From contig CAZGEO010000001.1 in assembly GCA_964525295.1 (NCBI GenBank), positions 9,671-73,670 on the forward strand: a stretch of 64,000 bases of DNA. The letters run 5' to 3'. The DNA is from an uncultured Candidatus Saccharibacteria bacterium. GTDB lineage: Bacteria > Patescibacteriota > Dojkabacteria > GCA-002793355. This document shows, piece by piece, positions 759 to 54,850 of this stretch (its first letter is position 1; each line of letters opens with the position of its first letter). The notes under the pieces were generated by a model. It ran no database searches and had not been told where the DNA came from. It worked only from the letters and a program-made list of their open reading frames with translations. Position numbers and translations under genes: made by a program.

Positions 759-1241
759 ATGTTTACCTTTTATCAAACACTACTCTTAACGCTTAATGTA
801 ATATTTCTTGCCTTTTTTGCATATCAGGATTATCGAACGCGAAGTATCCCTGCTTGGTCATTACTAGCATGGGGAGTTGTCACCATTATTGTGACGATTT
901 TAGTTGGGTTTACTAACTCGTCGGCTCTTTTTGTTCAGCAATTTCGTCATATAGCTATTCTCTTTCTTGCTCTTATATCAATAGGCTTACTTGTTGAGAT
1001 TTACACACAGGCAAAGTACTTCACCAAAGTTGACGCAATCATTTTTTCGGTTATTTGCGCATCATTAGGACTTGCAGGTACAGTACTTGTTGGAGCGTAT
1101 CTTTTATTTATTGGGATTGCACTTAAAAGCATGAAGATTTCAGAAATTACGAAACTTCCATTTGCTACAATTCTTATCGTAGCTTATATACCAGCCATTT
1201 TAACGTTAGAATTTATACTAAAAGCAATCGGACTCAATTAG
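759..1241 (+). CDS. Short A24-family prepilin peptidase-like membrane protein
   Basis: 160-aa polytopic membrane protein with a QDYRTRSIP motif resembling the catalytic Asp region of TadV/CpaA-type prepilin peptidases. It lies next to a pilus operon. Confidence 0.5.
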   Translation: MFTFYQTLLLTLNVIFLAFFAYQDYRTRSIPAWSLLAWGVVTIIVTILVGFTNSSALFVQQFRHIAILFLALISIGLLVEIYTQAKYFTKVDAIIFSVICASLGLAGTVLVGAYLLFIGIALKSMKISEITKLPFATILIVAYIPAILTLEFILKAIGLN

Positions 1242-1641
1242 TTAATGTTAGTGGCGAAGTGGAGATATCGACTCTCTTGCTACGTCTGACCGTATATTCA
1301 CCAGATACTGCAGTAATTTGTAAACTTCGAAGATTCGGTTGTCCATCAATATTCGTAATAACCGCGGTGCATGATCCTTCATCAAAAGTAAGTGTAAAAT
1401 TACCCAAGAATGATGAATTTTTAACAAGGCGATTCATTGATTCTTCAACGCACGAAGCGATTTTCAATTCAGCAAACTGCCTAGACACAAAATTCTTTGA
1501 TACGATAGTCACATCAATTGCATTGTAGAGAATAGCTATACCGGTAACCACCAAAACTGCGCCAGCAAGTAAAACTGATGTCAATGCGATATTGGCCTTC
1601 AATCGAATTTTCAGGAGTTTTCGTATCTTATCTAAATGCAT
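1234..1641 (-). CDS. Pilus-associated membrane protein (hypothetical)
   Basis: N-terminal TM helix. Overlaps the downstream pseudopilin gene, and is the last gene of the minus-strand pilus operon. Confidence 0.4.
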   Translation of the reverse strand: MHLDKIRKLLKIRLKANIALTSVLLAGAVLVVTGIAILYNAIDVTIVSKNFVSRQFAELKIASCVEESMNRLVKNSSFLGNFTLTFDEGSCTAVITNIDGQPNLRSLQITAVSGEYTVRRSKRVDISTSPLTLTN

Positions 1642-2113
1642 AATATGATTGAATTGTCTTACTTATTGTATCTGGATATTTCTCAGCGACCAAAGTCATC
1701 GTTATGCGTGCGCCTACAGCGACATTATTTGCGTCATATACAGGTTCCACCAAGAACATGGTTACATCCACGAGCGAATCTGTTAAGTTATGCGACGTCG
1801 TTCCATTCTGAACGAGAAATGTTCCTGAAGTAACGGAATAATCACGATAACCACCAGCAGTTGTGATACGCACCTTGCCATTATTATTACCAAAAGTTGA
1901 TGAAGCTTCATCAATTGTAATTCCCTGATTAAATGTATCTTTGAGATGCTCTATTACGAAGATTGCGTTTTTCTCTACAGCATTTTTGTATTCTGCAGAT
2001 CTATTGTTTTGTGTTAACGTAATAGTAAAAGTAATTACTGAAAAAAAGACAATGTTGAAAAGTGCCAGATACAGAATTGCTTCTACCAAGGTAAATGCCG
2101 ATAGCCTTTTCAT
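1628..2113 (-). CDS. Minor pilin/pseudopilin (type IV prepilin-like)
   Basis: N-terminus SAFTLVEAILYLALF is a class III signal with Glu at +5 and a hydrophobic helix. The start ATGA overlaps the stop of the upstream gene. Confidence 0.65.
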   Translation of the reverse strand: MKRLSAFTLVEAILYLALFNIVFFSVITFTITLTQNNRSAEYKNAVEKNAIFVIEHLKDTFNQGITIDEASSTFGNNNGKVRITTAGGYRDYSVTSGTFLVQNGTTSHNLTDSLVDVTMFLVEPVYDANNVAVGARITMTLVAEKYPDTISKTIQSYYAFR

Positions 2114-4035
2114 TTTTGATAGGTTAGTTCAAAATTAGCGAATTCCGGCGTTGATAACGTATCCGACGTAAATAAGACGCGATATTGGAAGTAGCGATTA
2201 TTATTGAGCTGTGCAGGTAATGTCATTATCTGCTGGGAAGTAAAATAGGTGTTTGACGTACCATCAGCCCCAATCCAACTTGCTCCATTCAATGTTGCCG
2301 TATTACTTGCTCTTACTTGAATTCTGACTGTAGCAGAAGCAGGAATTGTTCCACCCCAATCGAGTGAATAATACTGTGTCGTTGCTGAATTTGTATCAAA
2401 TATTCTTGAAATATATTCTCCTTCATTGGCATACCCTTGCCCTTGTGAATTGCCCCCACCCGGCCCACCCCTAATAATTCTCAATTCAGTTGATGCTTCA
2501 CTTGTAACAATGTATGAATAAGCATTTCCGTTAGTTTCTATCATCGAAAATACCGCATTCGGTGGTTGAGGTAAAGCTAAACCGCCACAATATACTGGCT
2601 TTGTTTCATTGTCGAGCGAAACAACTTGATATTGCTCAGAACCACCCGAACCAACTACGATTACTCGATTAGCGCCTTCTGGTGCAGTTATATCAATAGG
2701 CGCCATACCTTTGGTATCATAGCTACTGAAGGGATATTTTGTACCTGTTTTACTTGTCACATCAACAATAAAAAGCTCTGGTTGAGTTACAGAAACGGTA
2801 GTTCCCACATAAGCACGCGTTTCAGCTTCATTTACGTAAACAGTTTTTGCAGATTGCGTGTTAAGATCAATTTTACCAATGCTTCGCATCGATGAAGGGT
2901 TCGACAAATCAATGATTTCAAGTTCGGTTACCGAGTTACTTAATGCGATGTAAGCATAATTACCTCGAGCGAACATGTCTACAACTGTTCCTTGAAGGTT
3001 AATATACGATATGACAGGCCTTGCGCCAGTTTTCGCTGAAAGATTAAATGAATATAATCGAGTATCAGTAGCAACAAAACCTGTTGAGCCGTTGACGTAA
3101 ATACCTCTCCCTTGCGAATTTACCGATGGATTGAAATAGCCAATTTCAGTGTAAGGTGATGTTGCCATATTAACAATAACGACTTCTTTACTGTTCGTTT
3201 GTGTAGCTAAATAGCCATAATTGCTTTCAGCAAAAATGGCATTCGTTTTATATCCATCAAAAGTTCCCAACGATGATACAACAGGCGGTTCAACGGGTGT
3301 GAATGATAAGCGCGCAAAAGAAACACCAGAAGCGTTTGAGCCTGTTCCCATATATATATTCCCTTGAGTAACATATAGTGATTTCGCAATACCTTGACCA
3401 GGCAGATCATGAGTAGTTTGCGTTAACCCAGGTTTACACCAATCTGCAAAGAGTACTGGCGCCAAAACTACTTCTCCGCCGGCATTATTTCTTACCAGTG
3501 TTGAATTGTTAGTACCTGTTTCAAAATCAGCTACAGAAGTTTGAGACAAACGCAAAGTTGCCCAGTCACTCACGTAGGTAACCGTAGAGATTTCATTTGG
3601 AAGTCCTAAAAAGTCAATCCAGCTAGCAAGAAGTAAGACACTTCGAGTATGAGTATCTAAAGTACCGCCTGAAGTTACAATATTACCGTTAGTATCACGA
3701 TAAACATCCGTAATTGTTGTTGAAAGTGTCACACCATTTTTTGTTATTGATCCAGGGGTAAATTGATACTTACCTTCGTTATACGTTAAGTGGATTGGTC
3801 CAATTCCAGTATTAGAAATAATTGCACCCCACAAATTATCTTTGTTTTGAATGAGTGCATTGCTCATCTCTTGCAAATATTGGCTTGCTACAATCCGTTC
3901 TGATGAATTCTTTGTTGCACGAACAGCATCATTAGCAAGTACTCCAACTGAAGTAATGAGCATCGTAAATAAAGCCATACTGAGAAGAATTTCTGCAAGA
4001 CTAAAACCTTTAAATCGTAAACGAGTATTTTTCAT
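2110..4035 (-). CDS. Large minor pilin with prepilin N-terminus (641 aa), possible tip adhesin
   Basis: N-terminus KGFSLAEILLSMALF is a canonical G^F..E prepilin motif. It is followed by a ~600-aa Ser/Thr/Gly-rich extracellular domain. Confidence 0.7.
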   Translation of the reverse strand: MKNTRLRFKGFSLAEILLSMALFTMLITSVGVLANDAVRATKNSSERIVASQYLQEMSNALIQNKDNLWGAIISNTGIGPIHLTYNEGKYQFTPGSITKNGVTLSTTITDVYRDTNGNIVTSGGTLDTHTRSVLLLASWIDFLGLPNEISTVTYVSDWATLRLSQTSVADFETGTNNSTLVRNNAGGEVVLAPVLFADWCKPGLTQTTHDLPGQGIAKSLYVTQGNIYMGTGSNASGVSFARLSFTPVEPPVVSSLGTFDGYKTNAIFAESNYGYLATQTNSKEVVIVNMATSPYTEIGYFNPSVNSQGRGIYVNGSTGFVATDTRLYSFNLSAKTGARPVISYINLQGTVVDMFARGNYAYIALSNSVTELEIIDLSNPSSMRSIGKIDLNTQSAKTVYVNEAETRAYVGTTVSVTQPELFIVDVTSKTGTKYPFSSYDTKGMAPIDITAPEGANRVIVVGSGGSEQYQVVSLDNETKPVYCGGLALPQPPNAVFSMIETNGNAYSYIVTSEASTELRIIRGGPGGGNSQGQGYANEGEYISRIFDTNSATTQYYSLDWGGTIPASATVRIQVRASNTATLNGASWIGADGTSNTYFTSQQIMTLPAQLNNNRYFQYRVLFTSDTLSTPEFANFELTYQK

Positions 4036-4475
4036 TGCGGGTAATAAGAAATCATCCCTTCTGAATTAATTTCTACACGATATGTTTTTTGTGAATCGGT
4101 TACCGACACATAGCCGAAGGCATTGGGTCGAAACGCACCAGCAGAAAAAACCACTTCATTGCCAGAACTTAGTGCGATATTACTGATCCTAATTGGCTGA
4201 CTCACCGGAATTGTATCTGAAGCTTCAGCTTGTGCTAAACTAGCACCTCGGAAGGCAACTATTCTATCTGAAAAGAAAGCGACTCCATATGGTTTATCTA
4301 AATTCCCTGAGTATGCTTCTTGTTGTTGCCTGAATATTTCATAAGAAATCTCTTTTGCCTCTGCATCGGCGCGTTTCTGATTTATCAATCGAAGAGAATA
4401 TGGAAACATCAGCATTACTAAAAGAGAAAAAATTCCAAGAACGATTAATGTTTCAAAAAGGCTTGCTGCTTTCAT
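4032..4475 (-). CDS. Pseudopilin-like protein
   Basis: N-terminus SLFETLIVLGIFSLL is prepilin-like (Glu plus hydrophobic helix). Overlapping starts and stops place it in the operon. Confidence 0.55.
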   Translation of the reverse strand: MKAASLFETLIVLGIFSLLVMLMFPYSLRLINQKRADAEAKEISYEIFRQQQEAYSGNLDKPYGVAFFSDRIVAFRGASLAQAEASDTIPVSQPIRISNIALSSGNEVVFSAGAFRPNAFGYVSVTDSQKTYRVEINSEGMISYYPQ

Positions 4476-5549
4476 TTAATCATTAATCGCAGAAGTTAAT
4501 GAATAAATTGGTCCGACAATAATAACAGCCAAAAGACCAATCATTAGCCCAATAAATATCAAAAGAATAGGTTCAATTAATGCAGCCATGTTGTTGGTTA
4601 ATTCTTGCAATTCCTCTGAATAGAAGCCATGCAGATAGCGTAAGTTTTCTTCAAGTGACCCACTAGACTCACCAAGCTCAACTAATTGAATAAATGTTGC
4701 AGGGAAATATTTTTTATAATCACGCAAACAAGCAGCAAAACTCTTGCCACCTTCAACTTCAGTTGCAATCTTTTTCATCATTTCGTTATAGATAACATTG
4801 GACGTCGTGTCGGCAGTAATTTTAATTGCTCTCACCAACGGAATACCATTCGACATCAGTATACCTATTGTTCTCGCAATCGAAGTCAAAATATTTAAGC
4901 GAACAACATTCTTAATGACAGGAAAGTGCAGTGAGATAACACTCACCGTTCGTTTTCCATGTTTCGTCTTAACGTATATTGCAATAAGAATCCCTAATAG
5001 AATGACCCCTAACAACAACCAATACCAATTTGTGCGAACGAAAGTAGTAATATTCATGATTAAGATCACATAGGCCGGAATATTTTTAAAGGTCAAAAAG
5101 AGCTTTTCCATCTTAGGTAAGATAAAGAAAATAACTCCAGACATTTCGACTGCTGTCAGAAAGAAAACAATCATTGGATAGAGTAGTGCTCCATTAATTT
5201 TTTTCTGAAGGTCGTTTTTCTTCTTCAAATAATCAGCCAAAAAGAGTAAATTCTGATCTAATCCACCACCTTGCTCACCAACCTCAATAATTGAAACGAC
5301 AATAGGGGAGAAAACCTTAGGGAATTTCCTCATCGATTCAGCGAGACTCACACCTTTTTGAATACTTTCATGAATGACCCCGAAAACTTTACGAAGAAGT
5401 GGATCTTCTGACTGTTCTGTCATAATTTTGATTGTATTATCGAGGCTAATTCCTGAGCGAAGCATGACAGAAATATGGCGAATCGCCATTGCAACACTTA
5501 TCTCAGAAATCGATTCGCCAAACCCCAACTTAAACTCCTTTTTTTCCAT
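4476..5549 (-). CDS. pilC: Type IV pilus / type II secretion platform protein (PilC/GspF/ComGB family)
   Basis: Two GspF-type repeats and three TM segments. It sits directly after the ATPase gene. Confidence 0.85.
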   Translation of the reverse strand: MEKKEFKLGFGESISEISVAMAIRHISVMLRSGISLDNTIKIMTEQSEDPLLRKVFGVIHESIQKGVSLAESMRKFPKVFSPIVVSIIEVGEQGGGLDQNLLFLADYLKKKNDLQKKINGALLYPMIVFFLTAVEMSGVIFFILPKMEKLFLTFKNIPAYVILIMNITTFVRTNWYWLLLGVILLGILIAIYVKTKHGKRTVSVISLHFPVIKNVVRLNILTSIARTIGILMSNGIPLVRAIKITADTTSNVIYNEMMKKIATEVEGGKSFAACLRDYKKYFPATFIQLVELGESSGSLEENLRYLHGFYSEELQELTNNMAALIEPILLIFIGLMIGLLAVIIVGPIYSLTSAIND

Positions 5550-5551
5550 AG

Positions 5552-6799
5552 TTATTCCCTCATTGTAGTAACTCTCATTAATTCTGGAAAATCAATTAAT
5601 CCAGCCTTCAACTTATCAACCCCTGCTTCTACAATTAATCGTAGCCCTTGCTTACGAGCCTTCGCGAAGATATCATCAACAGTTGATTTTTCAGAAATCA
5701 TCCTGCGCAAGTCTTCATTAATTTCAAGAATTTCATACAAACCGACTCTACCTTTGTATCCAGTATTGCTACACGCCTCACACCCATTCTTCTGGAATAA
5801 AGCTTCTCCTGCGGTAAATGTATCTGAAATATCAGGTCTAGTCTTAGCAATATGACTAAGTTCTGCTGTCGTTAACTTGTACTTTTGTTTGCATTTCTCA
5901 CATAGACGACGACACAATCTTTGCGCAATAATGACATTTACCGTTGAAGCAACGAGATAAGGCTCAACCTCCATGTCAATTAATCGAGGAATAGTTGTTA
6001 CCGAATCATTGGTATGTAACGTAGATAACACTAAGTGTCCCGTCATTGCAGCGTTAACAGCAATTTTGGCAGTTTCAGTATCTCGAATTTCACCTACCAT
6101 AACAATGTCAGGGTCTTGGCGCAAAATTGCTCTTAATCCAGTTGCAAAGGTCATGTTTGCCTTTGTGTTGACCTGTATGTGATTAACGCCATCAATATCA
6201 TATTCTACGGGATCTTCAATGGTAGTTATGTTACGTTCTCTGGAATTTAGAATCTTCAAAATAGTATAAAGTGTTGTCGTTTTCCCCGAACCAGTTGGCC
6301 CAACCGCCAAAATCATACCATATGGTTTATTGTAACTTTTATTAACTTTTTCGAGATCTTCACCAACGATACCAAGTTCTTCAAGCGTTAAACTCTTGCC
6401 TTGCTGCGCAAGTAATCGAATAACTACTTTCTCACCTTTAGTTGTTGGAATAATAGAAATACGAGCGTCTATGACGCCATTATCGTTCGTAAAGCGGATC
6501 TTCCCGTCTTGTGGGGCAAAATGCTCATCTGTTCTGATTTGCGCTTCAACTTTAATTTTGAAAAGTAATGCTTCTTCAACAATTTTGTCGAACAAATAAA
6601 CTTCGCGCAGTAATCCATCGACACGGTATCTAACAACCAAACGGTGTTCGGTCGGCTCTATATGAATATCAGAAGCTTTTGCCTCATAAGCTTTGAAAAT
6701 AAGTGTTTCCAGTAGATTGCCAACATCTTGCGTATTAATACTTGCTGCGATTGTTTCATCAAGATTCTGATTTTGTGGAGCTTCAGTAGATATATTCAT
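5552..6799 (-). CDS. pilB: Type IV pilus assembly ATPase (PilB/GspE/ComGA family, short form)
   Basis: Walker A GPTGSGKTTTL, Asp box, His box and a tetracysteine motif CxxC...CxxC. At 415 aa it lacks a long N-terminal domain. Confidence 0.9.
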   Translation of the reverse strand: MNISTEAPQNQNLDETIAASINTQDVGNLLETLIFKAYEAKASDIHIEPTEHRLVVRYRVDGLLREVYLFDKIVEEALLFKIKVEAQIRTDEHFAPQDGKIRFTNDNGVIDARISIIPTTKGEKVVIRLLAQQGKSLTLEELGIVGEDLEKVNKSYNKPYGMILAVGPTGSGKTTTLYTILKILNSRERNITTIEDPVEYDIDGVNHIQVNTKANMTFATGLRAILRQDPDIVMVGEIRDTETAKIAVNAAMTGHLVLSTLHTNDSVTTIPRLIDMEVEPYLVASTVNVIIAQRLCRRLCEKCKQKYKLTTAELSHIAKTRPDISDTFTAGEALFQKNGCEACSNTGYKGRVGLYEILEINEDLRRMISEKSTVDDIFAKARKQGLRLIVEAGVDKLKAGLIDFPELMRVTTMRE

Positions 6800-6853
6800 A
6801 AGATAGAGCAGTCAATTTTTATCATTGTAGCAGATTAGCAAATTCAGTACAGC

Positions 6854-6880
6854 AAAAAAAAAGGGGGCCAAAGCCCCCTT
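6854..6880 (-). terminator. Rho-independent terminator between the pilin and pilB genes
   Basis: On the minus strand this reads GGGGGCTTTGGCCCCC followed by T9. It lies immediately 3' of the pilin gene. Confidence 0.75.
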
Positions 6881-6901
6881 TCGAATTAACCGCAACGCAG
6901 G

Positions 6902-7381
6902 TTATTTTCTAACTACAATGCTTTTGTTATCTTCTGCATTTGGCGCGCTAACTTCGACGCGGTTACCTGCAGTTTTGCAGATATCGTAGCCTGTATCAGC
7001 TGCTGTTCCTGCTGCAACAGTTCCACCTGGGTCACGAGGAATATCTGCGATATAAGTGTCAACCAACAAGGTGTAAAGGTTAATAGCTCCAGCTGCTGGG
7101 GTTGGGGTTCCTGAACCTGTGTAGCCAGCAATAGGTGCTGTGGTTGGGCAGATTGGAATTGAACCAAAATCAGCTAATGACTTTCCTGGTTCTGAGGCAT
7201 ATTGCCAAATTGCATTAAGAATTTGCTGCACGTCAGCGCTTCGCTGTGTATTTCGTGTAGCCATGAAGTTTCGTGCTGGGTTAATAGCGACGATAGTAAT
7301 CGCGGCTAAAATTGCGATCAAGCCGACGACAACAAGGATTTCGATTAAGGTGAAACCCTTAAGTGATGCCCGTTTCTGCAT
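6902..7381 (-). CDS. Major type IV pilin
   Basis: N-terminus KGFTLIEILVVVGLIAILAAI is the canonical prepilin methylation motif (G^FTLIE). The protein is 159 aa. Confidence 0.9.
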   Translation of the reverse strand: MQKRASLKGFTLIEILVVVGLIAILAAITIVAINPARNFMATRNTQRSADVQQILNAIWQYASEPGKSLADFGSIPICPTTAPIAGYTGSGTPTPAAGAINLYTLLVDTYIADIPRDPGGTVAAGTAADTGYDICKTAGNRVEVSAPNAEDNKSIVVRK

Positions 7382-8478: not shown

Positions 8479-9150
8479 ATGCGATTAGCACTCTACAGCA
8501 GCGGTTTACATCATGCCGATAAAACTATCGATGAGGCAGTTTGGCAACTTCTTCATAAGCCCACCCACCCACGCCTTTTATTACTCGTAGCTTCGCCAGA
8601 CGCCTTCAATTTCGTTTCCCCAGCTTTTACAAACTATTTACACGACTTCTGTTCACCAGAATATCAAGTCATTTTACCTACTTCTGAAAATCGAGACGCA
8701 ACGATTAACGCAATAGAGCAGAGTGACCTCATTTTTCTTTCAGGCGGAAATACCTACAATTTTCTAAACAATTTGAGAAACCTGCAACTAATTGATGCAG
8801 TAAAGAAGGCAGCACACACAAAAGTTATTGCTGGCTCAAGCGCCGGTGCGATACTTATGACGCCTAGCATAGAAATTGCCGGATATCCCGTTGAAGATGC
8901 AGATTCAAATGATTGCGGTGTGACCGATTTTTCTGCACTTAGTTTGGTTAAATTTGAGATTACTCCCCACTACGTGGCTTCTGAAGCTATAGATAAGCAA
9001 TTTCGCGAATATTCTATGAAGAGTGGCAGGCCTTTGTATGCACTCGCCGATGGAACAGGCATTATTGTTGAGGGCAATAAGGATCAATTATTCGGAAACA
9101 TTTTGATGTTCGACCACGGTGAAAAAATTAAAGTACAATGTTCATTATGA
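8479..9150 (+). CDS. Peptidase S51 family (dipeptidase E / cyanophycinase-like)
   Basis: FLSGGNTYNFL motif and catalytic Ser motif IAGSSAGAIL. Confidence 0.7.
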   Translation: MRLALYSSGLHHADKTIDEAVWQLLHKPTHPRLLLLVASPDAFNFVSPAFTNYLHDFCSPEYQVILPTSENRDATINAIEQSDLIFLSGGNTYNFLNNLRNLQLIDAVKKAAHTKVIAGSSAGAILMTPSIEIAGYPVEDADSNDCGVTDFSALSLVKFEITPHYVASEAIDKQFREYSMKSGRPLYALADGTGIIVEGNKDQLFGNILMFDHGEKIKVQCSL

Positions 9151-9548
9151 GAAGATTCACGACGCCAGACAATAATGACCAGACACCTTCACGCAAAGAG
9201 TTAGGCGAACCGCTTGATATAGTGATTGAACCAGAAAATTTCACTGCATCAATAACAGAACTCGTCCTACAAAATATGAAAAAAGAAGTAAAACAAGATC
9301 AAGAACTGCCAGATTTTAAAATTGACTACATTACTGCAGTAACTGAAGCGTATGAAAATTCTCCGGAAGTGTTACTAAATTTCGACATTTTTGTACCAAC
9401 AGCAAATTTGAGGCAACCTGCTCTTTGTTGGGGGAATGTATTTTCACATGAAGTTCATGATCTAGAACTCGAAGGTGAAGCATATACGGTCCCCGATACA
9501 CTCGACAACCTCATCCGGAATATCGCACGATCTGCAAATCGCAAATAA
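9138..9548 (+). CDS. Hypothetical protein
   Basis: 136-aa ORF overlapping the stop of the S51 peptidase gene. No recognisable motifs. Confidence 0.35.
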   Translation: MFIMRRFTTPDNNDQTPSRKELGEPLDIVIEPENFTASITELVLQNMKKEVKQDQELPDFKIDYITAVTEAYENSPEVLLNFDIFVPTANLRQPALCWGNVFSHEVHDLELEGEAYTVPDTLDNLIRNIARSANRK

Positions 9549-9634
9549 TTACTCAAAAAGATTCGTGACCATCTTCTTACTGTGAGACAACAAAAAATAT
9601 AGTATTAACGACTACAATCAGATATACTGTATGC

Positions 9635-11296
9635 ATGGAAGTAGACATTCTTTTAAAGGAAACACTTGGCCTTTCTGATTTTCAAATACTCGTCTATACG
9701 ACATTATTAGAAAGACAATCAACAGCTGGGCAACTAATAAAGAGATTAAATATTAATCGTGCCACTTTGTATCGAGTACTTGATGAGTTGGTAGAGTTGA
9801 ATCTTCTCATAAAAAAGCAAAGTGGCACCAGAATGATTTTTGAAGCAATGCACCCAGATGCGCTACTCGAAATGTTCAAGAGAAAACGCATTGCATTTGA
9901 AGAGAAATCTTTTGCACTTGAAAGGGTCGTGCATGAATTGATAAACAAAGCAAAAACTCAGCCTACTGATGCCTCTATCAGCATTGAAAAGGGTGTTATG
10001 GCACATTATCGCTCAATGAAATTGCAACTAACCTGCAAAGAAAAGATTATTCGTCAGAAGATAAGTAATGACAGTTCAATTTATTCTTATAAGAACTATC
10101 CAGAAACTGGAGATTACTTGAAATTCATGCATAAATACATGGCAGAGTGCGTTAGACTTGGTATTCACACGCATATCCTTGTTTCACTGAAGATTCCCGC
10201 AAGTATCAGTTCTTATAACGTCACCGATCCGACCTACAACCATATCTCAAAAGCTTTGCCAGAAGAAATATTTCCCAATATTAGTTTCAGAATATTCGAT
10301 GAGTACGTAATTTTCAGTATCAGAGATAAAAATCCAGAAGATAATACAATCATAACGATTCGTAACAGAACTACGGCTGATTTTTTGAAGTCGATGTTTG
10401 ATTTTATTTTTGACAGATCAATCTTGATTTACAAAGAAAAACCCATTGAAACGATAAAAACGAAGGAGCATGAAGTACTTTCAAAGATTGGCATGGGCAC
10501 AGCAGGCGTAGGTGGGTTTTGGAATGCAAGGCACCCTTTTAGTAATGATATTAGTGACCTTGATCAAATGCGTTTTTCACTGAGCAAAGGTATCAATTAT
10601 ATTGATAACTGCCTTATGTACGCCGAAGGCCACGCTACAGAACTTGTTGGTAGGGCAATCAAGAATTTTCCCAGAAAATCTCTCTTTATCAATGGCAAAT
10701 TAACCAGAGTAGGCGGCAAACTGGTTTCGAATGCGAAAGAGATTGAAACACAGTGTAATCAGTATTTAAAAAGCCTCGGAACAGATTATCTCGACGTCAT
10801 GCAGATTCACAGTCCAGGGTCACTCGCAATACCAGAAGAAGAAGTCGTGCAAAAATTCGAAGATCTCATCAGCGCAGGTAAAATACGTTATTGGGGCGTC
10901 AGCAACTATAATAAATCGCAATTAGTAAAAATTCAAAACTACACTAAGTATCCAATTTTCTGCAATGAAGTTCCGTTTGGCGTTTACGCAAGAGAATACG
11001 AAAAAGACGGGACTCTTGATTACATGAGAGCGCAAAATATTCTTACAATCTCATATTTCAGTATACTCAAAGGTGTATTAGGAATTAATCAATTTCTTGA
11101 TACAGAACACCCATTGGTAAGAATTGCAACTAAATACCGAAAAACACCCGCTCAAGTTGCAATAAATTGGGTTCTTTCACATCCATTTACTATTGCCATA
11201 ATTAAGGCAACGAACGGGACGCACATAAATGAAAATATCGGAGCACTTGGGTGGGAATTGGAGAAAGAAGATTTAGAAATGATTACTGGACTTTGA
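9635..11296 (+). CDS. Fusion protein: TrmB-like wHTH transcriptional regulator domain plus aldo/keto reductase domain
   Basis: The N-terminus DFQILVYTTLLERQSTAGQLIKRLNINRATLYRVLDELVELNLL is TrmB-type. The C-terminal ~270 aa carry the AKR catalytic tetrad context IDNCLMYAEG, INGK, MQIHSP and YWGVSNY. Confidence 0.7.
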   Translation: MEVDILLKETLGLSDFQILVYTTLLERQSTAGQLIKRLNINRATLYRVLDELVELNLLIKKQSGTRMIFEAMHPDALLEMFKRKRIAFEEKSFALERVVHELINKAKTQPTDASISIEKGVMAHYRSMKLQLTCKEKIIRQKISNDSSIYSYKNYPETGDYLKFMHKYMAECVRLGIHTHILVSLKIPASISSYNVTDPTYNHISKALPEEIFPNISFRIFDEYVIFSIRDKNPEDNTIITIRNRTTADFLKSMFDFIFDRSILIYKEKPIETIKTKEHEVLSKIGMGTAGVGGFWNARHPFSNDISDLDQMRFSLSKGINYIDNCLMYAEGHATELVGRAIKNFPRKSLFINGKLTRVGGKLVSNAKEIETQCNQYLKSLGTDYLDVMQIHSPGSLAIPEEEVVQKFEDLISAGKIRYWGVSNYNKSQLVKIQNYTKYPIFCNEVPFGVYAREYEKDGTLDYMRAQNILTISYFSILKGVLGINQFLDTEHPLVRIATKYRKTPAQVAINWVLSHPFTIAIIKATNGTHINENIGALGWELEKEDLEMITGL

Positions 11297-11307
11297 TTAT
11301 TAACGTA

Positions 11308-12087
11308 TTAATCTTGCCTTAGACCGATTTCGTTTTTATTACAAACAACGACATTAGGATTAACAAATAGCAAAATTGGAACATCCAACCTATTGCTATG
11401 CGCAAATGTATAACTGGCAGTGCTATTATATCTTGTCTCCAATGTTCTTAAGTCCTCAACACTTATTGCCTTACTAAAACTAGGAAGTGAAAATGGTGGT
11501 CTGCCACCATATTTATGATACCAAGAGAAAGGTTCCTCAGAATTTAGTGCACTAACTACAATTACCGGAATTTTTTTATTAAATTTTTTTATTTCAACAT
11601 GAAAAGAGATATTACCGTCTAACTGATCTTCCAAAGTTGGCAAAGAAATTTTAATGTTCTTGTTATTTGCTAAGCCCGCGATAATACCTGCGAGTAAACG
11701 ATAACGTGGCAGCTTTCCTGAAAATGGACGGTCGCTCCACTCTTCATGCAAAAACTTAAACCTAATCAATGAATTAAGCGTTGTACGTGTTGTACCTGAC
11801 ACGAGTAGTAATCTTACTAAATCTTGCTCCATCTCTGTAAACTTTTTTTGCAAATGACGGAGCTTTGCTTCCAAATTTCCAATGGAATTGGCAGATTTAA
11901 TCCTCATTTTGAAATTTGAAATATCACTATACGACTTTTGCATTCGTTCAATGAAAGTGAAAGTTCCACCGAAATTTCCATTGATTCTATTCTCAATGGC
12001 AGATGTCTTTGCATCAATAATTCGACGTTCTGAAACATATGAACGTATCTGAGCATTTTGCTTTGCAGTATCACGTATATCTGCCAT
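11308..12087 (-). CDS. Hypothetical protein
   Basis: 259-aa ORF with no recognisable motifs. Confidence 0.4.
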   Translation of the reverse strand: MADIRDTAKQNAQIRSYVSERRIIDAKTSAIENRINGNFGGTFTFIERMQKSYSDISNFKMRIKSANSIGNLEAKLRHLQKKFTEMEQDLVRLLLVSGTTRTTLNSLIRFKFLHEEWSDRPFSGKLPRYRLLAGIIAGLANNKNIKISLPTLEDQLDGNISFHVEIKKFNKKIPVIVVSALNSEEPFSWYHKYGGRPPFSLPSFSKAISVEDLRTLETRYNSTASYTFAHSNRLDVPILLFVNPNVVVCNKNEIGLRQD

Positions 12088-12135
12088 ATCCCATATTATA
12101 TCAACAATCTCTCAAAATTTTTAGTATACTTCAGT

Positions 12136-12657
12136 ATGAAAGTCATTTTATACAATGCAATATCAATTGACGGCTTTATTGCCACACCTGACGGAAATTC
12201 CGACTGGGTTTCAGAAAACGATTTACCACACTTTAAATCTGAAATTGAAAAGGCAGGCGCAATCATAGTTGGTCGAACAAGTTATGAACAATTTAAAGGC
12301 GACCTATTCCCCATTACTGGCGTTCTCAATGTTGTTATGACTCACGATAAAGGCTTTGCAGCAACAGAGTCAGCTGGCGATACACTCGTAACAACGCTAG
12401 ATCCACATGGCATATTATCAATGCTTGAAGCAAAGGGGTTTACTTCAGTTGTTATCGTTGGTGGTGGCAAAGTCAGTGCTTCTTTTCTGGCAGCAAATTT
12501 GATTGACGAGATAATTGTTGACATTCATCCACTAGTTATCGGAAAAGGAATAAAAATTTTCGAATCAGACAAGCCTTTATTAATGAATTTCACTCTAGAA
12601 GGTGTCGAAACCATTTCTGAAGGGCTCATAAAGTTACGTTATTTGCGAGCGTCTTGA
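12136..12657 (+). CDS. Dihydrofolate reductase-like protein (RibD C-terminal domain family)
   Basis: MKVILYNAISIDGFIATPDGNSDW is typical of RibD_C/YwjB-like reductases. The start was moved to the internal ATG at 12136. Confidence 0.7.
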   Translation: MKVILYNAISIDGFIATPDGNSDWVSENDLPHFKSEIEKAGAIIVGRTSYEQFKGDLFPITGVLNVVMTHDKGFAATESAGDTLVTTLDPHGILSMLEAKGFTSVVIVGGGKVSASFLAANLIDEIIVDIHPLVIGKGIKIFESDKPLLMNFTLEGVETISEGLIKLRYLRAS

Positions 12658-13361
12658 TTTCCTACGAGCCCTAGTTTACCGTTGTCCCTTGCAATCAAGC
12701 TGAACGGGACACCAATAAATATTGGTGAATCCCAACCACATTTCTCACTTTGTTCTTGTGCAATTCGGTATTTATCTAGGTACTTTTGCTCAAGTGTCAA
12801 TGCTTTATATGGTGAAGCAGGGTAGTTCAATATTTTTTGATCACCTGGAAATACAAAATACCCTTCTTGCACAGATTTATGAAACAATATTGGAATTACT
12901 TGATCGTCTTTAACCAAAAGAAAGCTAATTTTTCTTTCCCGCCTTGTACAAATATTTGGTAGTTTGACCGAAAAACCCGGGTTCATTTGCAGTAAAGCTA
13001 CAATAGTTGCTGCTTCTAATAAGAGTTTTGCACCTAATCCATTCAATCGCGAGAAATATTGTTTGACCTCGCAGGAGAATTTCATTCTGAAAACTTCGTT
13101 TTGTAATAGAGTTTGCAAAAGAGCGATTTCATGTTTTGCAATTTTCTCGCCCAAACGTTTCTGCTTCTGTAATATCCCTCTATCTGTTGGAGCATTGGCA
13201 AGAGCATTCTCCACATTTTGCTTGTCAAGCGATAATCGTGACAAATCCTTCAAACACTCAGATAATTCATTCGCAGGCGTTGGTTTTGGTGCATCTTTTT
13301 GTGTTTTAATTCTTGAGCTGTCGAGTGCTCCAACAATGTATGCTTCAAAATAATTACGCAT
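12639..13361 (-). CDS. Hypothetical protein
   Basis: 240-aa ORF with no recognisable motifs. Confidence 0.4.
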   Translation of the reverse strand: MRNYFEAYIVGALDSSRIKTQKDAPKPTPANELSECLKDLSRLSLDKQNVENALANAPTDRGILQKQKRLGEKIAKHEIALLQTLLQNEVFRMKFSCEVKQYFSRLNGLGAKLLLEAATIVALLQMNPGFSVKLPNICTRRERKISFLLVKDDQVIPILFHKSVQEGYFVFPGDQKILNYPASPYKALTLEQKYLDKYRIAQEQSEKCGWDSPIFIGVPFSLIARDNGKLGLVGNQDARK

Positions 13362-13468
13362 AGCCTATATTATATGATAGATACGCGTATTATGCAACTA
13401 ATACACCATATTGACTAAACAGCAGAAGAAACGTATACTTTACGTATATAACCTAACTGCCAGGTTTC

Positions 13469-14956
13469 ATGCAAGAACAATATCTCTATCTTGGTGACAC
13501 AGAAGTTTTTAATGGTCATTATTTGCTCGCCGTTTTCAAATTAGTTCCCTATGGCGACATCACAATCGAAGATGCTGCCTCAGAAGTTGCCGCTGAATCA
13601 TCAACAGGTTCCAATCTAAAAGTCGGCACACGTACCAATTACTCAATGGGTATCGATGCACGAGTCTACAAAATTGATAAAGAAAATCAACTTGCATACA
13701 TCGCGTACCCTTGGTCTATGTTTGATAGGGGAGGAAATGTACAAAATATTTTGACTTTCATTGCCGGTAACGTATTCGGCATGTCAGAATTGAAAGAATG
13801 TAAACTTCTTGATGTTTGGTTTCCATCGCAAATGCTCGATCAATACGACGGCCCAAGCGTAACACTCGATGATATGCGAGAATATCTAAACAATTATGAT
13901 CGTCCTGTATTAGGAACCATTATTAAACCAAAAATTGGCTTAACTTCAACAGAATATGCTGAAGTATGTTACGATTTCTGGGTAGGAGGTGGCGACTTTG
14001 TTAAAAATGACGAACCACAAGCTGACCAAGTTTTCTCTCCTTTTGAAAAAATGGTTGATTCCGTTCGAGAAGCAATGGATAGGGCCGAAGAAGTAACCGG
14101 CCACACGAAAATACACTCGTTTAATGTTTCGGCTGCTGATTTTGACACTATGCTTAAACGAGGTGATTACATTTCATCTGTTATGAAACCTGGAAGTTAC
14201 GCATTCCTTGTTGACGGCATTACCGCTGGCTGGAGTGCTGTACAAACAATTAGACGCCATTTTCCTCATGTATTCTTACATTACCACCGAGCTGGACACG
14301 GAGCATTTACTCGAGCCGAAAATCCAATTGGATACTCGGTACTTGTTCTCTCAAAGTTCGCGCGCTTAGCTGGCGCTTCAGGAATTCATACTGGTACAGC
14401 AGGTATCGGTAAAATGGCAGGAGACGCAAAAGATGACATTACGGCAGCGCACGCAATATTGAAGCTCAAGTCAAAAGGTCATTACTTTGATCAGGTTTGG
14501 TCTGAAATTCCAGAAAACGATTTTGATATTGTTGCTGCAATTGAAAAAGAAGCAGCATTATGGGGTAAAGGTGCCCATGGTATCGCTATGTCACGATTAC
14601 GCGGTCTAGATATGACTATGCAGCGAAAAATGTCTTGGAGAACAATAAATAAAACCGCACCAATTATTTCTGGTGGGTTGAATCCTGTACTTTTGCCAGA
14701 GTTCCTTGATACTATCGGTACAATCGACTTCATAACGACTATGGGTGGTGGTGTACACTCACATCCAAGTGGAACAAAAGCTGGAGCTACCGCTGTCTGC
14801 CAAGCATATGATGCCTGGAAACAGGAAGTAAAACTTGAAGAATATGCAAAAGAACATAAGGAACTTGATGAAGCAATCAAATTCTTCAATAAGCACGGTA
14901 CACAGGCCCACAGAGTAGACAATTCAGAAGTCTATAAGGTTGACAAGCCTGCATAA
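13469..14956 (+). CDS. rbcL: Ribulose-1,5-bisphosphate carboxylase/oxygenase large-subunit homologue (form II/III or III-like)
   Basis: Motifs KPKIGLT, GGGDFVKNDE (Lys/Asp/Glu active site), HYHRAGHGA and SGGLN...GGGVHSHP match the RuBisCO catalytic signature. No small-subunit gene is present. Confidence 0.8.
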   Translation: MQEQYLYLGDTEVFNGHYLLAVFKLVPYGDITIEDAASEVAAESSTGSNLKVGTRTNYSMGIDARVYKIDKENQLAYIAYPWSMFDRGGNVQNILTFIAGNVFGMSELKECKLLDVWFPSQMLDQYDGPSVTLDDMREYLNNYDRPVLGTIIKPKIGLTSTEYAEVCYDFWVGGGDFVKNDEPQADQVFSPFEKMVDSVREAMDRAEEVTGHTKIHSFNVSAADFDTMLKRGDYISSVMKPGSYAFLVDGITAGWSAVQTIRRHFPHVFLHYHRAGHGAFTRAENPIGYSVLVLSKFARLAGASGIHTGTAGIGKMAGDAKDDITAAHAILKLKSKGHYFDQVWSEIPENDFDIVAAIEKEAALWGKGAHGIAMSRLRGLDMTMQRKMSWRTINKTAPIISGGLNPVLLPEFLDTIGTIDFITTMGGGVHSHPSGTKAGATAVCQAYDAWKQEVKLEEYAKEHKELDEAIKFFNKHGTQAHRVDNSEVYKVDKPA

Positions 14957-15046: not shown

Positions 15047-16225
15047 ATGCAGCCATTAGCATTTAGAATGCGTCCTACAAAGCTGGAAGATTTTGTTGGT
15101 CAAGCAAACATTGTCGGTGAAACTGGGCCATTACGATCAATGATTGAAGCTAATTCAATCCCAAGTATGATTTTTTGGGGGCCTCCAGGAACTGGCAAAA
15201 CAACACTTGCAGAAATAATTGCTACAACTGTTGATGCAGAATTCTATAGACTTTCAGCAGTAACTGACGGCAAGGAGGCTCTTAAAAAAGTCGTACAAAT
15301 TGCAGAAAAGAATGAACAGTATCACAAAAAAACTATTCTCTTTATTGATGAGATTCACCGCTGGAATAAAGCACAACAAGACGCACTACTTCCATACGTT
15401 GAATCTGGCAGCATTACGCTAATCGGAGCGACAACTGAGAATCCAAGTTTTACGGTTATCTCTCCACTTTTATCGCGTTCACGAGTATTTATTTTTTCGT
15501 CTCATTCAGTCGAAGACATTGCAAATCGATTACAAAAAGCAGCAAAAGAATTAGAGATTGAACTTTCTAACGATTTAGCAATTTACATCGCCAATCTTGC
15601 AAATGGTGATATGCGATTTGCAATCAATTCTCTCGAATTAGCAGTTGAATTATCCCAAAAGAAACCCTTAACAAAGGAAATTGTCGAAGCTGCAATGCAA
15701 AAATTCCTTAGGTACGATAAATCAGGTGAAGAACATTACAATATTATCTCTGCAGTTCACAAAAGTTTGAGAAGTAGTAACGCTTCTGCTGCTGTTTATT
15801 GGATTGTTCGTATGCTTGAAGCAGGCGAAGACCCCTTGTATATAGCTCGACGATTAGTTCGCTTTGCCAGCGAAGATATTGGCAATTCACAACCAAATGC
15901 TTTGCTGCTTGCCAATCTAGTATTTGATACATGCAAAAATCTTGGTATGCCAGAGTGTGGCGTAGCCCTTGTGCAACTTGCAGAGTATTTAGCAAAAGCA
16001 CCAAAAAATAATTCTGCATATGTGGCCTATACCGAAGCAGTTAAAGACGTGCAGAAATTAGGCAACTTACCAGTACCACTCCACATTAGAAATGCTCCAA
16101 CGAAATTAATGAAAGACGTTGGCTATGGCAAAGGGTATCAATATGATCACGATTTACCAGGCAAGAAATCAAATCAAGAATGTTTTCCAGACGAACTTAA
16201 AGGTCGAAATTACTTCAATGAGTAA
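15047..16225 (+). CDS. rarA: Replication-associated recombination protein A (AAA+ ATPase RarA/MgsA)
   Basis: Walker A WGPPGTGKTT, Walker B IDEIHRWNK, and a conserved RarA C-terminal domain. Confidence 0.9.
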   Translation: MQPLAFRMRPTKLEDFVGQANIVGETGPLRSMIEANSIPSMIFWGPPGTGKTTLAEIIATTVDAEFYRLSAVTDGKEALKKVVQIAEKNEQYHKKTILFIDEIHRWNKAQQDALLPYVESGSITLIGATTENPSFTVISPLLSRSRVFIFSSHSVEDIANRLQKAAKELEIELSNDLAIYIANLANGDMRFAINSLELAVELSQKKPLTKEIVEAAMQKFLRYDKSGEEHYNIISAVHKSLRSSNASAAVYWIVRMLEAGEDPLYIARRLVRFASEDIGNSQPNALLLANLVFDTCKNLGMPECGVALVQLAEYLAKAPKNNSAYVAYTEAVKDVQKLGNLPVPLHIRNAPTKLMKDVGYGKGYQYDHDLPGKKSNQECFPDELKGRNYFNE

Positions 16226-54355: not shown

Positions 54356-54373
54356 AACATAGGTCGTAAAACG

Positions 54374-54547
54374 ATGGCAAAGTCAAAGGGAAAGACACAA
54401 TACGTCAGATTGAAATGTAGCGTGTGTGCCAACATCAACTACACCACAGTTCGTGGAACAGCAGCAGGAGCAGAGAAGCTTGCATTAAGCAAATTCTGCA
54501 AAAACTGTAAGAAGCACACCGATCATACTGAAACTAAGATTAAATAG
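54374..54547 (+). CDS. rpmG: 50S ribosomal protein L33 (zinc-ribbon form)
   Basis: MAKSKGK...CSVC...CKNC pattern, and its position before tRNA-Trp/secE/nusG. Confidence 0.8.
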   Translation: MAKSKGKTQYVRLKCSVCANINYTTVRGTAAGAEKLALSKFCKNCKKHTDHTETKIK

Positions 54548-54554
54548 GAGGTCT

Positions 54555-54624
54555 GGGGGTATAGTTTAGCGGTAAAATGACGGTCTCCAAAACCGTTGTC
54601 CTCCGTTCGAGTCGGAGTACCCCT
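54555..54624 (+). tRNA. tRNA-Trp (anticodon CCA)
   Basis: Acceptor GGGGGTA/TACCCCT, anticodon stem ACGGT/ACCGT with loop CTCCAAA, T-arm CTCCGTTCGAGTCGGAG. The rpmG/tRNA-Trp/secE arrangement is conserved. Confidence 0.85.
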
Positions 54625-54632
54625 GTTCTCAT

Positions 54633-54842
54633 ATGAGAAAGATTAGTATTAAAACAAAATTTACGCTACCAAAGGTGTTTCAAGACATTGCAAGCACTTT
54701 TGTAAGCATCCAATGGCCAACAGTAAAAGAAATAGCGATCAGTTTGTTTGCTGTTTTTGTATTTTCTGTTATAATTGGCGCGTATCTCTGGCTACTCGAT
54801 ACAAGTTTCGGGCAGCTCAGGAATGTAATATTATTTAACTAA
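54633..54842 (+). CDS. secE: Preprotein translocase subunit SecE
   Basis: 69 aa with a single C-terminal TM, upstream of nusG. Confidence 0.85.
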   Translation: MRKISIKTKFTLPKVFQDIASTFVSIQWPTVKEIAISLFAVFVFSVIIGAYLWLLDTSFGQLRNVILFN

Positions 54843-54850
54843 AGCGGCAA

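Follow-up and report, generated by a model that had tools for sequence, protein, structure and literature searches.

We report that a single bacterial gene joins a complete TrmB-type regulator module to an aldo/keto reductase (AKR) with an intact catalytic tetrad. The gene lies in a 64,000-nucleotide stretch of DNA (the window) from an uncultured Candidatus Saccharibacteria bacterium, placed by GTDB in the Dojkabacteria of the Patescibacteriota (GenBank assembly GCA_964525295.1, contig CAZGEO010000001.1, positions 9,671 to 73,670 of the forward strand). Its coding sequence, window positions 9635–11296 on the plus strand, is one unbroken open reading frame (ORF) from the first in-frame ATG to the stop and encodes 553 amino acids; the identical protein is present in the public collection as P0001, and in an alignment both its N- and its C-terminus match those of 16 homologues. 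AlphaFold2 (AF2) models of the full protein and of residues 1–272 (predicted local distance difference test, pLDDT, 85 and 86) show a winged helix-turn-helix (wHTH) DNA-binding domain at residues 1–71 (with the residues up to 74, 9635–9856), a long amphipathic helix of 34 residues (75–108, 9857–9958), an alpha/beta domain of the phospholipase D (PLD) type (114–260, 9974–10414), a low-confidence linker (261–272, 10415–10450) where the pLDDT falls to ~67 or lower, and an AKR (alpha/beta)8 or TIM barrel (273–553, 10451–11293). A first-pass annotation, made from the letters of the window, had described a TrmB wHTH and an AKR in one chain; the uninterrupted ORF, the Pfam matches to PF01978 and PF00248 and the predicted folds all agree with it; the E-values exclude chance, and that description was correct. 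It had also set a junction near 10450, which coincides with the predicted linker, but it did not describe the long helix and the PLD-like domain (residues 75–270) by which the two domains are separated. We give an even chance to the reading that the protein is an autoregulated one-component transcription factor of the TrmB type whose effector module is a still catalytic AKR; both roles considered in the first pass, a one-component regulator or a moonlighting enzyme-regulator, would fit the sequence evidence.

Related genomes carry the same fusion, a check that the first-pass annotation had suggested. We found about 25 distinct full-length homologues with the fusion architecture (30–61% identity), which fall into two clades, and all labelled ones belong to the Patescibacteria/Dojkabacteria. 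The close clade comprises seventeen further proteins of 553–570 amino acids with 43–61% identity and the same architecture, among them members encoded on the complete Candidatus Dojkabacteria chromosome CP129470.1 (889 kb) and on a 668-kb ENA contig. The distant clade (P0123–P0128, P0131 and P0133; 30–34% overall identity) likewise combines PF01978 with PF00248 and includes one UniProt/GenBank Dojkabacteria entry; PF01978 scored above threshold in the eight distant-clade fusions tested, except in the N-terminally truncated P0131. The homologues stem from many JGI, ENA, NCBI and Logan samples and have a continuous frame with a linker of similar length. It was conceivable that a TrmB-like gene of ~270 amino acids and an AKR gene of ~280 amino acids had been fused by a sequencing or assembly error near nucleotide 10450, as stand-alone TrmB-like (240–275 amino acids) and AKR (~275 amino acids) proteins both exist. 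However, the identical 553-residue product is found in two separate assemblies, a 659-kb NCBI contig and a Logan assembly of SRR11582163, the ~25 homologues, including two complete or near-complete chromosomes, have the same frame, and no split version appeared among the close relatives, contig-end fragments aside. This effectively rules out such an artefact, for which the probability that remains is negligible.

The fused AKR domains are monophyletic with respect to 101 stand-alone AKRs (20 of 20 neighbour-joining bootstraps). In a profile search the best stand-alone AKR reached 183 bits, compared with at least 740 bits for the fusions; this search, run with alignment A3, re-found the close clade only, owing to word-index limits. 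HMMER in turn ranked other fusions nearest to the N-terminal module. Of the modules, the wHTH has the highest identity inside the close clade (64%; AKR 55%), while across the two clades the AKR is best conserved (38% versus 25–30% for the others); the linker is the least conserved segment (36% within the close and 14% within the distant clade). In the two closest gene pairs, the proportion of nonsynonymous differences (pN) was 0.05–0.24 and that of synonymous differences (pS) 0.71–0.87 in each of the three modules, where pS is saturated, so that a dN/dS ratio is not quantifiable. Judged by these sequence comparisons, all three modules are under purifying selection, and the family descends from one old fusion that selection has kept in every part. 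One could still argue that the protein is first of all a metabolic AKR, with the TrmB-like module as a scaffold for oligomerisation or stability and no regulatory output: the AKR is the largest module and the one best conserved between the clades, and the public databases name the family simply 'aldo/keto reductase', with one JGI annotation giving both functions. We regard this as improbable, given that the wHTH is the most conserved module of the close clade, keeps the TrmB-type recognition-helix tyrosine and is under purifying selection, that a DNA-binding fold would be an improbable scaffold, and that a conserved repeat lies upstream of the gene.

The literature searched contains no description of an HTH–AKR fusion or of a TrmB scaffold in which an AKR replaces the sugar-binding subdomain. 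HTH–enzyme fusions as such are already known (PutA, BirA, NadR, MocR/GabR and GfcR); what seems to be new is the TrmB scaffold with an AKR. The fusion is found in 5 of 185,579 GTDB species representatives, all of them Patescibacteria, and by this count the design appears to be rare and lineage-restricted.

Pfam locates the wHTH at residues 7–74 (PF01978, E 7e-10; score 39 bits, cut-off 25.6), and the region also models as a wHTH, with helices at residues 15–26, 31–38 and 42–54 and a wing at 58–71 (pLDDT ~90). The recognition-helix region of the window protein reads NINRATLYRVLDEL; here Y46 is invariant across both fusion clades in the alignment and R47 nearly so. TrmB has Tyr50 in the corresponding region, a residue on which DNA binding critically depends (PMC4158304). 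The helix 75–108 (pLDDT ~83–89) superposes within the TrmBL2 and TrmB matches obtained with Foldseek. Because the helix after the wHTH of TrmB forms a coiled coil with a role in dimerisation (PMC4158304), the helix of the fusion is presumed to be a coiled-coil dimerisation helix as well.

In TrmB, the wHTH and a coiled-coil helix are followed by an effector-binding domain made up of two subdomains, of which the second, a beta-barrel, provides six of the seven sugar contacts (PMC4158304). When the N-terminal model was submitted to Foldseek, TrmBL2 came out on top (5bpi, 5bpd and 5bqt; E 1e-13 to 1e-11 over 269–281 columns, with chains of 255–263 residues), followed by P. furiosus TrmB (3qph, E 1.7e-10). 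Taken alone, the domain 114–260 resembles the PLD-fold proteins NucT (6ehi, TMt 0.69) and Zucchini (4h4a, TMt 0.67). By fold only, the first TrmB effector subdomain, a PLD-like eight-stranded sheet with flanking helices, is present at these residues. Its identification comes solely from structure prediction and Foldseek, since the sequence searches were uninformative: residues 75–283 gave only a sub-threshold PI3_PI4_kinase match in Pfam and NCBIfam, with PF11495 undetected, residues 1–280 gave only a chance-level DctP match against the PDB, and a profile search with the N-terminal alignment A2 led to MarR-type wHTH matches, with TrmBL2 marginal (E 0.09). The second, beta-barrel subdomain is absent; after residue 270, Pfam, AF2 and Foldseek all place the AKR TIM barrel. 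The proposal of the first pass that the AKR replaces the sugar sensor hence holds in part: the beta-barrel is substituted by the AKR, while the coiled-coil helix and the PLD-like subdomain are retained. An active nuclease was considered for the PLD-like domain and ruled out, because the HKD motif H-x-K-x4-D is missing from the alignment. The strand at its place reads S217-F-[R/K/A/Q/E..]-[IV]-[FY]-D-[DE]-Y224 throughout the family, with His, Lys and Asp unconserved, as is expected of a regulatory PLD-like domain.

Residues 1–280, used as the query of an exhaustive HMMER search, returned 681 relatives, mostly stand-alone proteins of 240–275 amino acids that align end to end, which marks residues 1–270 as a complete and common regulator module. 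On the basis of the models, we read these residues as a complete TrmBL2-like unit and the AKR as taking the place of the sugar-contacting beta-barrel of TrmB. Among the nearest relatives of the module, no enzyme domain besides the AKR was found fused. Several proteins of 500–1080 amino acids (P0147, P0158, P0165, P0179, P0203 and others) with two to four matched stretches are apparent tandems of TrmB-like modules, in which Pfam sees the first wHTH only.

The resemblance to TrmBL2 brings in a further explanation, namely a nucleoid protein whose low-specificity DNA binding tethers a carbonyl-detoxifying reductase, with no effector-controlled transcription. Residues 1–272 do match full-length TrmBL2 chains best (E 1e-13), the module lacks the sugar-binding subdomain just as TrmBL2 does, and the window shows no regulon motif. 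We see little chance for this explanation, as an inverted repeat that is conserved in position and specific to the clade lies upstream of the fusion gene, TrmBL2 is only marginally similar in sequence (E ~0.09), and hundreds of bacterial stand-alone proteins of 240–275 amino acids have the same module. Since the module is so common among bacterial stand-alone proteins, the TrmBL2 fold match reflects a shared architecture rather than orthology to an archaeal chromatin protein.

The C-terminal half is matched by PF00248 at residues 284–551 (E 3e-45), and its nearest solved relative is Thermotoga Tm1743 (5dan/6kik, E 4e-36 by sequence; 5dan TMt 0.90 by fold). The catalytic residues named in the first pass were all found to align to the Tm1743 tetrad: D324 (codon 10604–10606) and Y329 (10619–10621) in YIDNCLMYAEG, K355 (10697–10699) in INGKL and H392 (10808–10810) in MQIHSP. 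They are invariant in 25 of 25 fusions (17/17 close, 8/8 distant) and stand in the same columns as the D, Y, K and H of 100–101 of the 101 stand-alone AKRs. Of the cofactor site, N424 (the Asn of GVSN), K524, H530 and E533 are kept in all 25 fusions and S423 in 20 of them; N534 is kept along with them. The retention of tetrad and cofactor site favours retained chemistry over a decayed domain. The substrate is not assignable, since no NCBIfam equivalog reaches its cut-off (the best, a YdjG-type model, scores 68 bits against 550).

One position, which the first pass did not mention, departs from the AKR pattern in the whole family. Residue 445 (codon 10967–10969) is Glu in 25 of 25 fusions, whereas 97 of the 101 stand-alone AKRs have Gln, and it aligns to the Gln of the Tm1743 segment 'cdQvkyn'. 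We take this position to be that of the Gln which contacts the nicotinamide carboxamide, Q183 in AKR1B1 and Q190 in AKR1C9. The exchange may change how tightly the cofactor is bound or how well NADP+ is told apart from NADPH. It also lends itself to a different explanation, in which the protein is a transcription factor whose AKR is a pseudoenzyme and purely a ligand or redox sensor, for instance of the NADP+/NADPH ratio or of a nucleotide-like signal in the cofactor site. The Glu is universal in the fusions while only 4 of 101 stand-alone AKRs lack the Gln, a carboxylate beside the nicotinamide could distinguish the oxidised from the reduced cofactor, and the AKR is covalently joined to the DNA-binding module at the position homologous to the sensor subdomain. 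In addition, the RECON–c-di-AMP structure 5uxf is among the fold matches and the Kv_beta subfamily model matches the AKR domain weakly by sequence. Against a pure sensor speaks the tetrad, which is invariant across a divergence down to ~30% identity and is not obviously needed for binding; this argument is not decisive, as Kv-beta (AKR6) retains its catalytic residues too. On balance, we hold a catalytically silent sensor to be rather unlikely and continue with the still catalytic AKR as effector module.

If the protein regulates transcription, its own promoter is the place where a binding site would be expected first, and an alignment of eight upstream regions gave a candidate. The inverted repeat TGTCTT-N8-AAGACA(AC) is found at about −65 to −45 from the ATG in 8 of 8 close-clade loci (−65 to −44 in the window), although the upstream regions are otherwise diverged. 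It keeps this position both where a pilin gene lies upstream in divergent orientation and where a peptidase S51 gene precedes the fusion in the same direction. The loci L004 and L011 have the perfect repeat, TGTCTTCCCGCCAcAAGACA; the window has a degenerate copy, CATCTT-CTTACTGT-GAGACAAC, at 9570–9591 on the plus strand. In 227 kb of non-redundant loci, the N8 repeat with at most one mismatch occurs six times, five of them at this upstream position. About 9 nt after the repeat begins a promoter-like element (9600–9628, plus strand), read from the sequence as a −35-like TAGTAT (9600–9605), a 17-nt spacer and a −10-like TATACT (9623–9628). The −10-like hexamer (TATACT, TATAAT or TACAAT) ends 6–7 nt before the ATG (6 nt in the window) and is kept at this distance in 7 of 8 loci. 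A scanner for consensus promoters and terminators reported nothing at 9300–9800 at its thresholds, so that the promoter assignment follows from the conservation across loci only. There is no Shine–Dalgarno sequence at the start of the fusion in the window (9623–9637), L002, L004, L005, L011, L013 and L014. Because of this and of the short distance from the −10-like hexamer to the ATG, the fusion mRNA is probably leaderless there. Distant-clade L009 instead has a leader of ~40 nt.

At the equivalent place, the distant clade has other repeats. L009 contains AGTAGTA-N8-TACTACT and L015 contains TAGTAGTAG-N7-CTACTACTA, both followed by TTGACA and with the common half-site core GTAGTA-N8/9-TACTAC, and L007 contains GTGGA-N7-TCCAC. 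The recognition-helix regions differ in parallel: INRATLYRVL in the close clade, LDKSS[MT]YRAL in L009 and L015, and MDKSTVYKV in L007. That the half-sites change between the clades together with the recognition helix suggests an autoregulated factor that co-evolves with its candidate operator, for which such a pattern is expected.

From these observations we propose the following mechanism. Residues 1–270 would dimerise through the coiled-coil helix, and the dimer would bind at its own promoter, to the inverted repeat whose centre lies ~20 bp upstream of the −35-like hexamer. Tethered by the short linker, the AKR barrel would bind NADP(H) and a carbonyl or sugar-type substrate. Its occupancy or the redox state of its cofactor could then be relayed through the PLD-like subdomain and the helix and thereby change DNA binding. 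The effector may in addition be a compound that the enzyme itself turns over, in the manner of PutA, BirA and NadR.

Several observations weigh against this proposal. The repeat copy of the window deviates at 3 of 12 positions, and a search of the 64-kb window for further copies (TGTCTT-N9/N8-AAGACA) gave three where 5.3 are expected, and thus no sign of a regulon. Some 15% of random 110-nt windows contain a perfect inverted repeat with arms of 6 nt or more, so that the argument for an operator rests on its conservation among related genomes. With ~14 bp between their centres, the half-sites have an unusual spacing for a simple wHTH dimer that occupies adjacent major grooves, and another factor could bind the repeat, given that stand-alone TrmB paralogues are encoded near the fusion in L006 and L009. 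On the protein side, the nearest structural match, TrmBL2, is described as a chromatin protein and not a specific regulator, the Glu that every fusion has for the cofactor-contacting Gln might impair or alter NADP(H) binding, and the AF2 models have predicted template modelling scores (pTM) of 0.55–0.60, at which interdomain contacts cannot be reliably read.

The genomic context offered a possible physiological link. A RuBisCO large-subunit gene (13469–14956, plus strand; 495 amino acids; PF02788 and PF00016) begins 2.2 kb downstream of the fusion, and an MgsA/RarA-type AAA gene (15047–16225, plus strand) follows as its conserved partner. The catalytic domain of this RuBisCO is matched in two stretches, which suggests an insertion, and the enzyme is presumably of form II/III or of the III-like form of the nucleoside pathway known from the candidate phyla radiation (CPR) (PMC5113843). 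The pair lies near the fusion in all close-clade loci (70–85% and 73–81% identity), with the RuBisCO gene 0.07–3.5 kb from the fusion in 9 of 9 of them and, in one genome, with the fusion directly upstream on the same strand. How CPR RuBisCO and the genes around it are regulated was left open by Wrighton et al. in 2016 (PMC5113843), and one may speculate that the TrmB–AKR protein regulates RuBisCO-dependent nucleoside salvage in this Dojkabacteria lineage, with the AKR, tuned by Glu445 beside the nicotinamide, reading NADP+/NADPH or a pentose/carbonyl intermediate and so controlling transcription of RuBisCO and neighbouring genes. We consider this very unlikely. The close-clade neighbours, being 70–85% identical, come from related genomes; the distant-clade fusions have no RuBisCO within 8 kb; the fusion is missing from all 42 of the other RuBisCO loci whose upstream sequence extends over 4 kb or more (of 79 loci, nearly all 58–67% identical to the window RuBisCO); and the RuBisCO promoters are devoid of the fusion-type repeat, save for an N10 variant in L002. 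For these reasons we downgraded a functional coupling, and the adjacency is best read as lineage-specific synteny.

The RuBisCO loci gave some further observations. The RuBisCO upstream regions of the window (~13380–13468) and of L002, L005, L011, L013 and L014 contain a common GTATTATA block, followed by a TTGAC −35 and a TATACT −10, and RuBisCO upstream regions share (A/G)A(C/T)TGCC ~10 nt before the ATG, which is unlike a canonical Shine–Dalgarno sequence. A stand-alone AKR gene is located 1.4 kb upstream of RuBisCO in L042 (6730–7608) and a stand-alone TrmB-like gene 4.6 kb upstream in L025 (3671–4372); each is a single case in 80 loci and may be coincidence. Between fusion and RuBisCO, the window has two hypothetical minus-strand ORFs of 259 and 240 amino acids (11308–12087 and 12639–13361) with no Pfam match and weak mutual similarity (E 0.017), which flank a RibD_C/DHFR-like gene on the plus strand (12058–12657). 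Related genomes have a single unrelated ORF of 222–232 amino acids or nothing there, and the small ORFs have no similarity across genomes, as at a fast-evolving insertion point.

On the other side of the fusion, the minus strand at 1234–7381 holds a cluster that resembles type IV pilus and type II secretion systems (T2SS), with a T2SSE ATPase (5552–6799), T2SSF (4476–5549), a pilin-like ORF of 159 amino acids (6902–7381) and an ORF of 641 amino acids (2110–4035); it is syntenic with L002, L004, L005, L011, L013 and L014. A peptidase S51 gene (dipeptidase E-like) lies directly upstream of the fusion or at most 3 kb away in both clades (window 8479–9150, plus strand; L005 7212–7931; L009 4119–4814; L011 and L013 ~6250–6920). 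Stand-alone TrmB-like paralogues of 262–263 amino acids are found 1–2 kb from the fusion in L006 (10744–11532) and L009 (6285–7076), where the order on one strand of L009 is stand-alone TrmB, a Shikimate_DH-like gene and the fusion. Finally, the cumulative GC skew of the window has its minimum at ~54356–54850, coinciding with a gap of 495 nt that separates two divergent blocks of genes: minus-strand genes of unknown type to one side, and plus-strand nusG-rplK-rplA, a SUFU-like gene and mreB to the other. This gap could be a strand-switch point or a replication landmark; the ORFs checked did not include a dnaA.

If the proposed mechanism is true, the AKR barrel would join the sensor and effector modules of one-component transcription factors, and the TrmB scaffold would be able to trade the sugar-binding subdomain for an entire enzyme, a point of interest for the evolution of effector specificity in this family. 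In the CPR/Patescibacteria, with genomes of 0.6–0.9 Mb and few regulators, there is almost no experimental knowledge of transcription control, and a compact, putatively autoregulated enzyme-regulator for which an operator is predicted offers work in vitro a tractable start. The family-wide exchange of Gln for Glu provides a specific and testable hypothesis of redox sensing. Should the link to RuBisCO, weak as it is, be confirmed, the importance would rise; no earlier transcription factor would have an AKR as its sensor, and CPR RuBisCO would gain a first regulatory handle.

Among known systems, TrmB and TrmBL1 (Tgr) of the Thermococcales (3QPH; effector domain 2F5T) have in common with the N-terminal half of the fusion the PF01978 wHTH with its tyrosine, the amphipathic helix and the PLD-like subdomain; a palindromic operator is expected for both. 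In place of the beta-barrel with six of seven sugar contacts, however, the fusion has a 280-residue AKR TIM barrel, PF11495 is undetected, and the host is bacterial (CPR) and not archaeal. The candidate operator, with 6-nt arms and an 8-nt spacer, is also unlike the Thermococcales glycolytic motif (TGM), TATCAC-N5-GTGATA. TrmBL2 (5BPD, 5BPI, 5BQT and 5BOX), described as a chromatin protein and global repressor, is matched by residues 1–270 over its whole length (E 1e-13, 269–281 columns). As a stand-alone protein of ~260 residues that coats DNA and has no sensor domain, it ends after the PLD-like domain, as do the bacterial stand-alone proteins of 240–275 amino acids, whereas the fusion continues into a 280-residue enzyme and so differs from TrmBL2 in overall build; the chromatin role of TrmBL2 likewise contrasts with the specific, conserved repeat upstream of the fusion. 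The PLD/HKD nucleases NucT and Zucchini have the fold of residues 114–260 together with a catalytic motif that the fusion does not have.

On the enzyme side, Tm1743, a minimal AKR of T. maritima (5DAN with NADP+, 6KIK), has the same compact barrel of ~275 amino acids, the same tetrad, the same K...H..EN cofactor motif and the same His at the R268/R276 position as the fused AKR; it differs in being a stand-alone protein with the canonical Gln where the fusion has E445, and the identity is ~28–33%. Kv-beta (AKR6), which senses the pyridine-nucleotide redox state, and RECON (AKR1C13), which senses c-di-AMP, are AKR barrels that preserve their active-site residues and control a partner through the state of their ligand or cofactor. 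This is a functional analogy only, with no specific relationship beyond the AKR superfamily, and what they control is separate from them, an ion channel or the NF-kB pathway, while the partner of the fused AKR is a covalently attached DNA-binding domain. PutA, BirA and NadR are bifunctional enzyme-transcription factors, while MocR/GabR and GfcR have enzyme-fold effector domains, GfcR being presented in PMC10838023 as an archaeal sugar regulator that combines an HTH with a phosphoribosyltransferase fold. In all of them the ligand state of the enzyme or enzyme-derived domain sets transcription; they belong to domain families non-homologous to those of the fusion, and none has an AKR barrel. With the fusion they share the principle of design, a DNA-binding domain and an enzyme or enzyme-derived domain in one chain.

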